Assembly (NCBI RefSeq): GCF_003018255.1
Contig: NZ_CP027441.1
Strand: one strand, 5' to 3'
From: Escherichia coli
GTDB lineage: Bacteria; Pseudomonadota; Gammaproteobacteria; Enterobacterales; Enterobacteriaceae
Length of the DNA: 64,000 nt
This document shows positions 21,001 through 30,000 of the stretch, in pieces. The position numbers were made by a program. Numbering within the stretch: position 1 is the stretch's first letter; each line of letters starts with the position of its first letter.

Positions 21001-24000
21001 GTCATTACCCAGTTTCTCAGCTACCGCATATAATTGGCTGCCGTTAATTGCATCAGTACTTGTCTCAGATATAGAACCAGCAGCAACATTGACTATCTGA
21101 CGTTCATTTCCATTCTTTCCAATGGAAAAAACACTTTGGGGATTTGAGGCTGCAAACCCAGTATAAATCCTATCATTAATTTTTGCCTCAGTTACTTCTG
21201 TAGCCAACTTATCAACTGAGCCAGAACCAATTGCTACACTCTTATCAAAATTTACAGTGGCATCTTGTCCCAGAGCTACCGCAGAGGGCTTATTTACGAT
21301 CGCCGAGTCACCTATAGCTACAGAATTGACAGAATTTATACCCTTAACATGGCTGTACGCCCCTAAAGCAATACTGTTTTCAGCCTCTGCTTTGCTATTA
21401 TATCCTATCGCATTTGACTGATTTCCTCCAGCAACGGCTGTAGCACCCAGCGCGTTAGCCCCCATACCAGTTGCTTTACTGACCGCACCAATTGCAAGAG
21501 ATAAAGTTTCTGTTGCTTTACTTTGAGGGCCGACAACGATACTGGCGTCTCCTGTAGCCTCTGATGCGTCATAATTATCAGGGATCAATACTCCCCCATA
21601 CGAACGTCCTTTTAATGGCGTAAGGTCATCACCACCAATAACAATTGCTCCCCATCCACTTGCTTTAGTATCACCACCTATCGCGATTGACTGTTCTTTA
21701 GTCGCTTGTGCTTTGGCGCCGATTGCAATAGATTCTCCTGTCTTAAACCCTTCTGGAGTTTGTATCTCACCACCTGCTATCGCACTTGTACCAATAGCAA
21801 TAGAATTACGCCCACTAGCAATTGGAGACGTATGTTTGAAATAAATACCCTTATCTGGATCTTCTGGAACTTCACTAGTAGTCCCTATTTCGATGCTCAG
21901 CCAGTCATTACCTGCTGTATCCACCGGAGCTTCATCAACCTCAATATGAGACGTATTCTTTTCTGCAAAGGTCATAGCAACCGGAGCTATTGCTAGCGCA
22001 ATAGAAACACAAAGGAGTGTTTTTTTATATTTCATCGTCAGTCTCAACAATTTAAGGTATGCAATACTCTTGGAGTTTCCTTATCAACCCCAAGCATTCT
22101 TATAAAATACTCTAATAGCATGACACATATAAAAACAAGCAAGCAAGTAAACATACAATGTATCCTTTGATGCTCGCCCCTATACAGATAAAATCATTCC
22201 ATTTTATAAAACATAGAAGACATGCCTTGCAAAAAAAATAACCTTAATGTAGCTGTTACTTATAAAACTCCCTTAAGCGACATATGTTTTGATGTATTTT
22301 GTTTAATCGATTCAAGCTCACTGTTAAGTATCCATTATTTATATTATAGTGTTCGCAAACGAACTTTCTTGAACATCCATCAACCAAATAGGCTCTCAAA
22401 GAATCAAATACCTTCTTACTACATATCGGTGATATATCCATCAATAATAAGAAATGTTCTTCATCTAAACAGCCTGGCGTTAACATACTTTCGTCAGGTG
22501 CTCTGGTGTTTTTTTTATCCAAATTAATGATTCTCTCCATGCATGCCTCCTTTTTTACTATCATAAATACAAAAACAACTTTATCTCAACTCTCTCTTTA
22601 CATACGAAAAAAAGTCAAACAATCCATACACAACAGCAATAACAACAGAAACAACCAAGAAAAACAAAAAAAGAAAAACAAAAAACCAATACGCGAAGCA
22701 AAACCAAAAAAACACTTTTAAAACAGAAATAAAAAAAATTAGATAAAAATCAAATGACGACAATATTATCTAAACTTGCAATTAAAAATGAAACCTGTTC
22801 TTTGCAAGTGTGATAGTATTATTCTTCTGCAAGCTGATAAATGACATGCTTAGTTATCCCTCCCATTAATTTCTATTAAATATTTAATAAACTTGAACTT
22901 TGATTTCTACCCTTGATTTTTTCAAAAAACAATCAGTCGAACTGACTGGAGAATAACTCTAAAGACTCCTTCCATCTGGCGGTGATTAAACAGAGACAAG
23001 CATCATTGTTCTTCCCCTGAAATAACAGACTCGCAGCTAAGTAATAGCTCTGTCAGTGTGAGTCACATTACACAATGAAGTTGCACACTGAATTTGGCCA
23101 CCTGAACAGAGGTGATATGCTCACCTCAGAACAACACCGGTGCTCCAATGAAAAAAAGAAATTTCAGCGCAGTGTTTAAACGCGAATCCGCTCAACAGGT
23201 TGTTGACCAGAACTACACGGTGGCAGATGCCGCCAAAGCTATGGATGTTAGCCTTTCCACAATGACAAGATGGGTTAAACAACTGCATGATGAGCGTCAG
23301 GGCAAAACACCAAAAACCCCTCCGGGTAACACCAGAACAAATCGAAATACGTGAGCTGAGGAACAAGCTATAACGCATTGAAATGGAGAATGAGATATTA
23401 AAAAGGCTACCGAGCTCTTGATGTCAGACACCCTGAACAGTTCTCGATAATCGGGAAACTCAGAGCGCATTATCCTGTGGTAACATTCTGCCATGTGTTC
23501 GGGGTTCATCGCAGCAGCTACAGATACTGGAAAAACCGTCCTGAAAAAACAGACGGCAGACGGGCTGTATTACGCAGTCAGGTACTTGAGCTACATGGCA
23601 TCAGCCACGGTTCGGCCGGAGCAAGAAGCATTGCCCGGAGAGGCTACCAGATGGGATGCTGGCTTGCTGGCAGACTCATGAAAGCGCTGGAAATGGCATG
23701 AAAAACCCATGGTAAGCCCAGCGAGGTGATGTTCCACAGCGATAGTAATAATGCCGGTATCAGTTTTTATCATCACTCTGTTTGCTGTTTAACCAGATTG
23801 GTGTGATTACTGATGCAGTGAAGACCTTCCCGCATCCTGACTCACACAGAGCTCGCCCCTTTGTGTCCTGCCCCGGACCTGTCGGTTGCCGGAAGCGCCT
23901 TCATGCGAGGCGTCTCCTCACCGATGCGCGTGACTCAAGAAGGGCCTGACGGCTTGTCTCGTTACTGTCCTGTCTGGGTTATCTGTCTGGAGATTCAACT

Positions 24001-27000: not shown

Positions 27001-30000
27001 TCAGCGAGGCAGCTCACGCCATAACGGATTATATCGTTGGATATTACAGCACACTAAGACCGCACGAATATAACGGTGGGTTACCCCCAAACGAATCGGA
27101 AAATCGATACTGGAAAAACTCTACCCCGGTGGCCAGTTTTGTTAAGCACGTTAAATTTTGGAGGATATGCCCTCCAAAACAATAATCTGTATGAACAACC
27201 AGAAGACTTTCCTTAATACTGTAAATGCAGCTAAATCAACAATTGCAAAACCGCCCCAAGCTCTTCTGAAAGATAAAAAGCACCAAATACATGAGCAAAA
27301 ATCATACATTCAACACCATTCAATAACATTTAGTTAAGAAAAACAACAACGAATCGATTCAGCAAACATTTTCAACAAGAAAAATACTTTATATATCCTT
27401 TCCGGTTTTATAAACGAGACCTGAGCTCTCTTGGAGAGACAAATGTAAATTTGTCACACAGACGACAGCAGCCGGAACATTACAAATGCCGCCTGACAGA
27501 CCAATAACAACAGTAATGATGCTGAATTTGTTTTCATTGAGGAAATGACATGCACCAATACCTGCTTTTTTTACTGGGACTTACCCCACTTTTGACAATG
27601 ATCATTTTGATTCTGAAAGTCAAAATGCCCATACATTATGCCGTACTCAGCACACTCTTTATTACACTGATTCTTGCAATTTTGTTCTGGCACACACCAG
27701 TTCAGGACCTGGGCTCTGCTGTTGTATACGGAGCAATCAAAGGTCTGTGGCCGATAGTAATAGTCATACTTGCGGCCATTTACAGCTATAACCTGATGAA
27801 TGCGACAAAAAGCATGAACATTCTGCGAAATGTTCTGGCCGGTGTCAGTGATGATAAACGTATCCAGGTGCTTCTTATCTCATGGTGTTTTGGTGGATTT
27901 CTTGAGGCGGCGGCTGGGTACGGTACAGCTGTAGCAATCCCCATTGGTATACTCATTGCTCTGGGCTTTAACCCTCTAAAAGCCGCAATTGCATCATTGG
28001 TTGCTAATACAGTACCTACCGCGTTTGGTGCTGTCGGCATACCTGTATCAGTACTTGCTGAACAGGTAAATTTACCCGTAACAACCCTCAGTGGGACGAT
28101 TATTCTTCAGTTGGCAGCGTTCAACATTCTGCTTCCCTTCGTTATAGTCGCTATTATTGGGGAAGGCCTGAAGGCTATACGAGGCGTTGGGTTCATGACC
28201 TTAATGTGCGGTGTGAGCACATTAATCCCACAGTATCTGATGGCTGTTTATCTTGGCGCAGAACTTCCGGCTTTCGCTGGAAGTCTGGTCAGCCTGATCG
28301 TTATTGTCATTATGGCTAAAAGCCGTAAAGAAAAAACAGAACCAGAATTTCTTATTGAGGTTTCAGGAGATAGCGCTGGTGCACTTTCATATTCCCGTGG
28401 GGAGTTGTTCCGGGCCTGCTCAATCTACATCCTGATTTTTCTGTTTATTCTTCTTTGCTCTCCATTGTTCCCGACTGTAAAAAGTGCAGTATCTCAGGTT
28501 GCTTCGTCACTCAGCTTCCCTCTGACTGACGGCAACAATCTGTCTATGACGCTCGAATGGATCGCAACCCCCGGTGTTCTGATCATCATTGCCAGCGTTA
28601 TTGGCGGATTGATTCAGAAAGCATCCCTGTCATGCCTGTTAAACGTATTTGTCAGTACGGTAAAACAGCTCAAAAACTCCATTATTGCTATTTCTGCAAT
28701 TGTCGCTATGGCAACGGTAATGGATATTTGTGGGTTAATTGGCACACTGGCACAGAGCCTTGTGGATCTGACAGGTGGAGCCTACCTCTTCATTGCTCCA
28801 GTTATAGGTGCTCTTGGTACATTTGTTACTGGCAGTGACACAAACTCCAACATTCTGTTCGGTAAGTTGCAGACTACTGCGGCTGAAAAGTTGCACGTAG
28901 ATCCACTCTGGCTGGCTGCTGCAAACACATCTGGCGCGACCGGTGGCAAGATGATTTCTCCCCAAAGTATTGCTATCGCTGTTTCTGCCACACGTATGGA
29001 TGGTCAGGGCAGCGTCATTATGTCCGGGACACTGAAATACTGCTTTGTCTATATTGTTATCCTTGGACTGAAAATAGGCCTGATCTACCACCTGTTCATG
29101 GTCTGAGAAAAGAGCAACAAAAGGACATGGGATATTAATCAACAGGAGATATTTCTGTGAATGTTAACTTTTTCGTCACCTGCATTGGTGATGCTTTTAA
29201 ATCCCGGATGGCTCAAAACAGCGTGCTGTTACTGGAGCAATTGGGTTGCAATGTCCATTTTCCCGAAAAACAGGGATGTTGCGGTCAGCCAGCGATAAAT
29301 GGCGGTTATGTTCGTGATGCCATCCCGGGCATGAAAAACGTCATATCTTCGCTGGAAGAGAATGACTGGCCAGTTATATCTCCCGCGGGATCATGCACCT
29401 ACACGATAAAAAATTATGCTCATTATCTCAGTGATGAGCCTGAATGGGCTGCTCGGGCTGAAAAAGTGGCTGAACGTCTGCATGATTTGACATCCTTTAT
29501 CGTAAATCATCTCGGCATTACTGATGTTGGGGCAAGACTCAATGGGCGTGCAGTATTCCATCCCTCCTGCAGCCTTTCCCGTAAGCTGGGTATAACCAGA
29601 GAACCGCTTTTGCTACTTGAGAATGTGCGGGGACTTGAACTGCTTCCGTTTCACGCTCAGGAGACATGTTGCGGGTTTGGCGGCACGTTCTCCGTAAAAA
29701 TGGCAGAGATTTCTGGCGAAATGGTGAAGGAGAAAGTCGGGCATATTATGGATGTTAAACCTGATTTTCTTATCGGAGCTGACGCCAGTTGTCTGCTAAA
29801 CATCGGCGGTCGGCTTAGCCGTGAAGGGCATCCTGTAAAAGTGATGCATATTGCTGAAGTCCTGATGCACAGATGAGGTAAACAGAATGTCTTTGAAAAC
29901 AAGTGATATCAGGTTTAAAGAGCGTATCCGTATTCAGATTCAGGACCCGATCATGCGAAAGGCTGTCGCTAACGCACAGGAGCGCATAGGGACTAATCGA

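Follow-up and report, generated by a model that had tools for sequence, protein, structure and literature searches.

The 4.08-kb block at positions 23076–27153 of the window (the whole 64,000-nucleotide stretch of Escherichia coli DNA analysed here) is very probably the fossil of three stacked insertions, passively inherited on a pO113-type virulence plasmid of Shiga-toxin-producing E. coli (STEC). An IS911-like element is interrupted by an ISEc21-like element of the IS110 family, which is itself interrupted by an unnamed IS3-family element, and all three are, judged by their sequences, inactivated. The three-level nesting is confirmed as real, and it is ordinary rather than unusual. The boundaries of the elements, the contiguity of the interrupted halves, the common target site, the 6-bp duplication and the lesions that disable the elements were all observed directly. 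An initial annotation had recognised the three levels, assigned the families as IS911-like, IS110 and IS3, and placed the interruptions in the outer orfB and in the middle transposase gene. Each family call agrees with reference alignments or profile matches, the interruptions fall at junctions 23743|26834 and 24464|24465, and the terminal repeats noted for the inner element were recovered as inverted-repeat pairs. When the flanking halves were compared with reference IS sequences, as that annotation had suggested, they belonged to the same elements, IS911 and ISEc21, and both split elements rejoined on contiguous reference coordinates.

The IS911-like element is flanked on one side by the sab adhesin region and on the other by the lldP-lutABC lactate module. 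The whole nested block is 99.7–100% identical across 26 complete plasmid records from E. coli, that of strain EH41 included, and the locus is also found in 21 PLSDB plasmids and one metagenome contig; because of this recurrence it is not an assembly artefact. Two plasmid sublineages of the block differ only by 2 SNPs and one 12-bp deletion. In the RefSeq PGAP annotation of an identical plasmid, the block appears as five pseudogene pieces whose order matches the nesting. An Rfam scan of 22500–27800 (E <= 1) returned only a spurious lncRNA match, with no model for an IS110 non-coding region or a frameshift pseudoknot. All elements, and the features described within them apart from the strandless target-site duplication, are on the + strand.

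The outer element begins exactly at 23076, as first annotated, and ends at 27153 rather than at 27190; its pseudo-ORF ends at 27185. Its orfB is divided between two arms: the 5′ part, as far as CAC AGC GAT (His-Ser-Asp), lies in the left arm (23076–23743) together with the left inverted repeat (TGAAGTTGCACACTGAATTTGGCCACC...) and an orfA that is frameshifted, and the 3′ part lies in the right arm (26834–27153), where the right inverted repeat is degenerate. By BLAST, 23076–23690 aligns with IS911 nt 1–626 at 94.1% identity, 23677–23743 with nt 865–931 at 92.5%, and 26829–27151 with nt 927–1246 at 92.9%. The first two blocks overlap on 14 nt (23677–23690), marking the junction of a 252-bp internal deletion (IS911 nt 627–878) that falls at a 14-nt near-repeat, CATGAAAG(A/C)GCTGG. 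Further decay takes the form of frameshifts, a 12-nt gap and TTA in place of TCA at the tip of the right repeat: the left repeat (TGAAGTTGCAC...) is intact, while the right repeat ends ...GCACGTTA, against ...CCACGTCA in the IS911 reference copy, so that its tip reads ...GTTA instead of ...GTCA. PGAP describes the left arm as 'transposase, frameshifted; internal stop; missing C-terminus'. Under the ISfinder rule, isoforms of one IS share >95% nucleotide identity, and on its sequence the outer element, which falls below this level, is best called an IS911-like relic.

There is no recognisable 3-bp target duplication around the outer element (flanks ...ACACAA / AATTTT...). Homology to its left flank in another plasmid ends at 23075, homology to its right flank in pRM10042-2 begins at 27154, and the two flanks are found separately, in different contexts, in other STEC plasmids. 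A search with the flanks joined, across 5,426 complete E. coli genomes, found no empty site. The outer element may sit at a joint formed by IS-mediated recombination and not where it simply inserted, and the absent duplication fits either such a joint or later decay.

The middle, ISEc21-like element consists of 23744–24464, which aligns with ISEc21 nt 1–721 at 93.3% identity, and 26184–26833, which aligns with nt 716–1374 at 88.8% identity with 11 gap columns; the 6-nt overlap of the two alignments is the target-site duplication from the inner element. The left piece comprises the left end with a 281-nt 5′ non-coding region (23744–24024), ∼98% identical to ISEc21-type non-coding regions, followed by the N-terminal 146 codons of a DEDD transposase (24025–24464; Pfam DEDD_Tnp_IS110, PF01548, E = 2.1e-17). 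This fragment scores 82 bits against NCBIfam transpos_IS110, under the cutoff of 140 because the protein is truncated, and PGAP labels it 'IS110 family transposase, missing C-terminus'. The right arm (26184–26833) encodes the C-terminal part of the transposase, ends ...AGAAGGGCGTC, and contains three frameshifting indels (an 8-nt gap, a 1-nt insertion and a 2-nt deletion); PGAP labels it 'frameshifted; internal stop; missing N-terminus'. In addition, a private substitution (codon 24214–24216, CAA) replaces the inferred catalytic Glu64 with Gln. Private substitutions in the middle element number 26 synonymous versus 32 non-synonymous, as compared with 27:5, 43:4 and 28:5 in functional lineages. 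Part of its divergence from ISEc21 is thus decay after inactivation; its identity to ISEc21-type copies is 91.4–91.9%, under the 95% isoform level. At the junctions, GCGAT|AGTAAT and GGCGTC|(C/T)AGGGC, no bases are repeated, and each boundary can be placed without ambiguity. With the two arms joined as a query, no close (>95%) uninterrupted copy was found in the 5,426 complete E. coli genomes.

The junction between the outer and middle elements corresponds to IS911 931|932 without target duplication, and places the insertion point directly after the codons CAC AGC GAT, at the second catalytic Asp of the IS911-like transposase. Nine ISEc21-type copies (L005, L006, L007, L011–L015 and L026) lie at this same His-Ser-Asp codon block, again without duplication, in at least four IS3-family sequence contexts and in hosts that include E. 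coli, Enterobacter, Pluralibacter, Klebsiella and another Escherichia species; one of them, L007, and L008 are the filled and empty versions of one chromosomal IS911. Insertion of ISEc21-type elements into IS3-family transposase genes is already known: ISEc21 is RNA-guided, its seekRNA maps to its 5′ non-coding region, its published target is the second-catalytic-Asp codon block of these genes, and its named IS3-family hosts are ISEc92, ISEc93 and ISCfr6 (PMC11187229). The middle insertion is site-specific, not random, and lies where an ISEc21-type element would be expected to settle. By homology with ISEc21, we infer that the window copy was likewise guided by RNA. The initial annotation had missed the site-specificity of this insertion.

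The seekRNA region of the middle element contains two guide-like segments (23845–23875) whose canonical forms equal the target half-sites in eight natural copies. Segment B (23845–23854) reads CACAGAGCTC here, where the canonical form is CACAGCGATC, and segment T (23868–23875) reads CTGCCCCG, where the canonical form is CTGCCCTG. As a result, guide and flank match at 12/18 positions in the window copy, as compared with 15–18/18 in the eight natural copies with canonical segments. The middle element carries private non-coding substitutions at 23850, 23852, 23856 and 23874; of the five in the 281-nt region, three fall within the guide segments and another is 2 nt away from one of these (permutation P ∼0.002 and 0.0003). 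Additionally, the SNP at 23870, one of only two between the plasmid sublineages, falls in segment T.

This clustering could be taken as a sign of natural re-programming, with the middle element an ISEc21 variant whose altered guides are adaptive rather than decayed and specify a new target, predicted as CACAGAGCT|CGGGGCAG. Such retargeting has been described in ISMch6 (PMC11187229), and within the family the L029 copy carries the guide CACTCTGATC beside a CAC TCG GAC His-Ser-Asp target. However, the altered B segment (CAC AGA GCT), unlike that of the functional L029 variant, no longer encodes His-Ser-Asp, the element occupies the canonical target rather than a site matching its altered guides, and the same copy is heavily decayed otherwise. 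When any base was allowed at five of the variable guide positions, 100,044 species genomes yielded canonical guides only; viral contigs searched with fully open guide positions gave no match, and the exact variant guide was found in metagenomes only at this locus. Together, these observations make re-programming exceedingly unlikely, and we favor decay of a canonical ISEc21-like element. The clustering of private non-coding substitutions in both guide segments is the remaining oddity of this copy. It is very unlikely, though a little less so, that the clustering goes beyond chance, reflecting either a guide that was naturally re-programmed and once functional or a mutational process specific to the guides within IS110-family non-coding regions.

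The inner element spans 24465–26183 (1,719 bp) and is 95–99% identical to IS3-family copies elsewhere. It comprises a left inverted repeat (24465–24497), a conserved core (24498–26127) with orfA from 24546 and the orfB frame to 26083, and a composite right terminus (26128–26183). It scores 186.8 bits against NCBIfam transpos_IS3 (cutoff 160) and matches Pfam rve (E = 6.5e-16), and a protein search gave only the label 'IS3 family transposase'. The element is bracketed by a CCACAG target-site duplication (24459–24464 and 26184–26189), at which ISEc21 nt 716–721 align on both sides of the insert. Target duplications in the IS3 family are usually 3–5 bp; the 6 bp seen here and the 5–7 bp of relatives exceed this range, and L019, the intact copy nearest to the inner element (98.9% identity), is likewise flanked by a duplication of 6 bp, TAAAAA.

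The initial annotation considered this innermost element potentially intact, a view refuted by a private stop in orfA: codon 67 (24744–24746) is TGA here and TGG (Trp67) in intact relatives (translations compared with L003, L002, L019, L020 and L021), and PGAP also flags an 'internal stop'. The orfA and −1 frame orfB overlap at ∼24985–25070, with no confidently assigned slippery site; PGAP annotates a 'programmed frameshift' in both the inner element and its intact relatives. The termini read TGCAT...ATGCA, with the inverted repeat in two gap-separated blocks (inverted-repeat pairs I1, I2 and I16). The right end is a 56-bp composite, compared with 32 nt in relatives, and is made up of two overlapping right-repeat-like modules, one of which pairs without gaps to the left repeat as far as 26143, the other (26151–26183) ending in the ...ATGCA tip that adjoins the duplication. 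We also considered a fourth nesting level, with a small palindromic element as the host of the 1,630-bp core. This was rejected since the variable 33-nt ends have a common repeat skeleton, TGCRTAWT...GATC..., bear the TG/CA tips and adjoin target duplications in several copies.

In the order of events that we propose, the IS911-like element would have been present first, between the sab region and lldP-lutABC. The ISEc21-like element would then have inserted into its orfB right after CAC AGC GAT, with two short seekRNA/bridge RNA segments from the 5′ non-coding region base-pairing with the half-sites CACAGCGAT|C and CAGGGCAG, and the DEDD transposase putting the circularised element into the paired site without target duplication. 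The IS3-family element would next have entered codon ∼147 of the ISEc21-like transposase gene by ordinary DDE (Asp-Asp-Glu catalytic triad) transposition, producing the 6-bp duplication, after which all three elements would have decayed and been inherited passively with the plasmid.

It had initially been supposed that this order could be read from the nesting. Each host is indeed older than its guest, but nesting gives only a partial order, because a composite could in principle have moved in trans. The IS3-family element would in that case have first broken the ISEc21-like element elsewhere, and the resulting 3.09-kb composite would have been mobilised into the IS911-like element by the transposase and seekRNA of a functional ISEc21-type element that the cell also carried. 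Mini-elements with only 29 bp of left end, 16 bp of right end and target flanks can be mobilised in trans (PMC11187229), and ISEc21-type elements are common in E. coli, with their non-coding region carried by 578 of the 5,426 genomes. We nevertheless regard this route as improbable: the composite junctions are seen only in the pO113-type locus, and the extra helper element that it needs makes it less parsimonious, with no sequence feature that demands it. Since none of the 5,426 complete E. coli genomes carries the outer and middle elements without the inner one, the relative timing of the ISEc21-like and inner IS3-family insertions is inferred by parsimony, with the ISEc21-like insertion into orfB preceding the IS3-family one.

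The locus shows cleanly, in a natural setting, an RNA-guided element of the IS110 family that disables IS3-family transposase genes and has itself been disabled by another IS3-family element. One type of nested IS in enterobacterial plasmids thus follows guide-RNA target choice, not random hits. The block, which annotation splits into five unrelated-looking pseudogenes, now has exact boundaries. Its value is chiefly for annotation and teaching, with no evident bearing on the virulence genes of the plasmid.

Each of the three elements can be set against a known system. The outer element aligns with IS911 along its whole length at 92.5–94.1% nucleotide identity and shares its orfA/orfB layout and its left inverted repeat, where a single mismatch occurs among the first 27 nt; it differs in the missing 252 bp, the frameshifts, the degenerate right tip and the lack of a target duplication. 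The middle element shares with ISEc21 (reference length 1,374 bp; Siddiquee et al. 2024, PMC11187229) its ends (AGTAATAATGCC... and ...AGAAGGGCGTC), a ∼98% identical 5′ non-coding region and insertion at the same point, after the second catalytic Asp codon, without duplication. In contrast to ISEc21, it is split by another IS, carries E64Q, three frameshifting indels and mutations in both guide segments, and is only 91–92% identical overall; for comparison, a single residue separates the L005 transposase from the published TnpEc21.

IS621, a bridge-RNA recombinase system, belongs to the same IS110 family, with a DEDD RuvC-like domain (Durrant et al. 2024; Hiraizumi et al. 2024, PMC11208158), and works in the same way as ISEc21, with loops of the 5′ non-coding RNA pairing with target DNA (PMC11208158). 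Its residues D11/E60/D102/D105 would correspond to D15/E64/D102/D105 of ISEc21, with equal D-to-E spacing. The proteins are very distant, and because phmmer against PDB sequences returned nothing at E <= 0.01, the mapping of Glu64 onto the solved IS621 structure rests on the correspondence of motif and spacing. The two also differ in target, which is REP (repetitive extragenic palindromic) sequences for IS621 and the IS3-family transposase codon block for ISEc21-type elements. Finally, the closest kin of the inner element are intact E. coli IS3-family copies (WP_433913976.1, on plasmid A of strain C5, and WP_371415529.1), whose 1,630-bp core is 95.7–98.9% identical to it and which resemble it in orfA/orfB arrangement, in an annotated programmed frameshift, in TGC...GCA termini and in duplications of 5–7 bp. 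The inner element departs from them in its W67 stop and in the 56-bp composite right end that stands in place of their 32-nt right repeat.

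Aligning both sides of every junction to reference insertion sequences (IS) bore out the three-level nesting proposed in the initial annotation, with the halves flanking each insertion belonging to the same element. Against an intact IS911 copy (L008:401-1648, PGAP 'IS3-like element IS911 family transposase'), the outer element aligns as two left blocks, 23076-23690 (IS911 nt 1-626, 94.1% identity) and 23677-23743 (nt 865-931, 92.5% identity), and a right arm, 26829-27151 (nt 927-1246, 92.9% identity). With the inner insert taken out, the sequence between these arms matches a 1,374-bp ISEc21 copy in another retrieved locus (L005, PGAP 'IS110-like element ISEc21 family transposase') over its full length, the left arm at 23744-24464 matching ISEc21 nt 1-721 (93.3% identity) and the right arm at 26184-26833 matching nt 716-1374 (88.8% identity). 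ISEc21 nt 716-721 have a match on either side of 24465-26183, which makes the innermost, IS3-family element a 1,719-bp insert flanked by a 6-bp duplication, CCACAG.

The left inverted repeat of the outer element starts exactly at 23076 by comparison with IS911, and its right inverted repeat, which reads ...GCACGTTA versus ...CCACGTCA in the L008 copy, ends at 27153, correcting the right boundary of 27190 given at first. Other STEC plasmids support both boundaries independently: they share the left flank only up to 23075 and the right flank only from 27154 onward. The overlap of the two left blocks on a 14-nt near-repeat marks a 252-bp internal deletion; with a further 12-nt gap, a 1-nt insertion frameshifting orfA, a 4-nt insertion in orfB and the altered right repeat, the outer element is dead. 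No 3-bp duplication is found at its flanks. The flanks at 23075/23076 and 27153/27154 occur separately in other STEC plasmids (L023:2468-2782 and L024:2501-2839), and in pRM10042-2 the lldP-lutABC module starts at the same base, 27154, and adjoins a different IS3-family element. Since the two flanks were never found adjoining each other in other plasmids, the outer relic may mark where an IS-mediated event joined the sab adhesin module to the lactate-utilisation module.

The orfB product of the inner element has an NCBIfam IS3-family score of 186.8 bits (threshold 160) and rve domains, and copies 95-99% identical to its 1,630-bp core (24498-26127) are present in 257 E. coli genomes; searches yielded no ISfinder-type name for it. 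The closest intact copy, on plasmid A of strain C5 (98.9% identity), has a left end of the same type and a 6-bp duplication, TAAAAA; other copies of this type have duplications of 5 or 7 bp, and the terminal ∼33 nt differ among copies, which have the repeat skeleton and TG...CA tips in common. The 56-nt right end (26128-26183) combines two right-repeat-like modules that overlap; the outer one adjoins the duplication with its tip, ...ATGCA, at 26183. In pMAR2 of the enteropathogenic E. coli strain E2348/69 (L010:1501-1557), the same tandem arrangement (94.7% identity) stands alone as a ∼58-bp remnant that lacks the IS core. The suggestion that the innermost element is potentially intact did not hold: codon 67 of the window's orfA reads TGA, against TGG in five relatives, and this stop, labelled 'internal stop' by PGAP, rules out OrfA and the OrfAB fusion alike. 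Mobilisation in trans is conceivable, because the ends and duplication are preserved.

Elsewhere in the window, 59430-59496 holds 67 bp in which a left and a right inverted repeat of the inner-IS type stand head to head, 3 bp apart. This pair resembles an IS of which just the ends are left and adjoins cdiA/adhesin fragments; no more than 21 records have it complete, and single half-sites are present in 2,064 of 5,426 E. coli genomes. Other IS3-family pseudogenes, together with a fragment of a second, unrelated IS110-family transposase, are found at approximately 32352-32780, 40829-41977, 44245-45291 and 48704-48871 (converted from NZ_AP042513.1), interspersed with the virulence genes lut, espP, saa, iha and subAB, and BLAST of these fragments against IS911, ISEc21 and the inner IS gave no match.

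The nested locus is already present in public annotated records. Across the 7-kb stretch around the nest, 26 complete E. coli plasmid records and 21 plasmids in PLSDB are 99.7-100% identical, and the same nested locus is found in one metagenome contig; among the records with a near-identical locus are NC_007365.1 (pO113) and the plasmid of strain EH41. The annotation of an identical plasmid is that of a STEC virulence plasmid (ehxCABD, sab, lldP-lutABC, espP, saa, iha, subAB), in which five same-strand pseudogenes follow one another from the sab regulator to lldP; PGAP names them 'transposase', 'IS110 family transposase', 'IS3 family transposase', 'transposase' and 'integrase core domain-containing protein'. 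The recurrence of this block across many plasmid records, and the pseudogene row, indicate that the locus is real and reproducible. Over 4.3 kb, two plasmid sublineages, the window's and a ∼160-kb one (e.g. NZ_CP027585.1), are separated by just two SNPs and a 12-bp deletion polymorphism within the inner IS (25101-25112), and therefore all major lesions are older than the spread of the plasmid family.

The initial annotation, mostly right in its interpretation, read the order of events directly from the nesting, which gives only part of it: each host element must be older than its guest. Topology alone does not tell whether the middle element already held the inner one when it entered the outer; ISEc21 derivatives can be moved in trans (PMC11187229). 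Neither an ISEc21-like::IS3 composite elsewhere nor an intermediate state was found in searches; the outside-in order is thus parsimonious rather than proven.

What the initial annotation missed is the site-specificity of the middle insertion. In L005, L006 and L007, ISEc21 interrupts IS911-type sequence at nt 931/932, the same point as in the window, and L007 and L008 represent one chromosomal IS911 filled and empty of an ISEc21-type insert. Six more copies, in Enterobacter, Pluralibacter, Klebsiella, another Escherichia species and an E. coli plasmid, are preceded by CA(C/T) AGC (G/A)A(T/C) in IS3-family genes of otherwise different sequence, with CA(G/A) GG(C/A) AG on the right side where codons are intact; none of the six has a target duplication. 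ISEc21 is known to insert without target duplication and to require RNA from its upstream non-coding region (PMC11187229). Within that region, CACAGCGATC and CTGCCCTG are identical to the left half-site top strand and the right half-site bottom strand, respectively, and in eight natural copies the guide stretches match their own flanks at 15-18 of 18 positions. This shared site and the guide/flank match make the nesting of the middle in the outer element the expected result of an RNA-guided, IS3-seeking element. On pRHB09-C15_2, a bovine E. coli plasmid, a 527-bp fragment 98.5% identical to the window's inner IS (L017:5326-5852) lies ∼1.5 kb downstream of an IS911::ISEc21 pair whose IS110 transposase is intact, bringing the same three element types together without three-deep nesting.

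The window's middle element has five private substitutions in its 281-nt non-coding region; among them are those at 23850, 23852, 23856 and 23874, and three of the five fall inside guide segments B (23845-23854) and T (23868-23875), with a fourth 2 nt beside one (permutation P ∼ 0.002 and 0.0003). SNP 23870, one of the only two separating the sublineages, also lies within T, and the C to A change at 23850 extends a local quasi-palindrome. A naturally re-programmed guide was set aside, and the changes are read as probable decay, because the variant was found in no other genome or metagenome contig searched beyond the window's own locus, the element occupies the canonical site, with a fit to its own altered guide of 12/18, and not a site that fits the new guide, and the altered B segment no longer encodes His-Ser-Asp. 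In contrast, a functional but more distant ISEc21 relative on the E. coli ET729 plasmid (L029:1503-1660, NZ_CP100928.1; 74% nucleotide identity, intact transposase) has the guide CACTCTGATC and follows CAC TCG GAC, again His-Ser-Asp, in another IS3-family gene; its right flank is lost and the comparison covers one guide only, and it is a real natural guide-target co-variation via a synonymous serine codon. 

The coding sequence of the middle element is also damaged: its 3′ half shows a gap of 8 nt, one +1 insertion and one −2 deletion. Of its private substitutions, 26 are synonymous and 32 non-synonymous, versus 27:5, 43:4 and 28:5 in three functional lineages, which points to long neutral decay. 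Position 64 of its transposase, within a G-V-E-C-T-G motif, is Gln. The catalytic residues of IS621 are D11/E60/D102/D105 (PMC11208158), and the ISEc21 set is D15/E64/D102/D105; since a sequence search against the PDB gave no alignable structure for an ISEc21-type transposase, we infer from motif and spacing that position 64 corresponds to E60. The target site of the middle element agrees with published ISEc21 behaviour (PMC11187229), and all components of the nest are of known kinds: the outer one is an IS911-like relic, the middle one an ISEc21-like seekRNA/bridge-RNA element sitting at the target published for ISEc21, and the inner one an IS3-family element that is common in E. coli but has no name.
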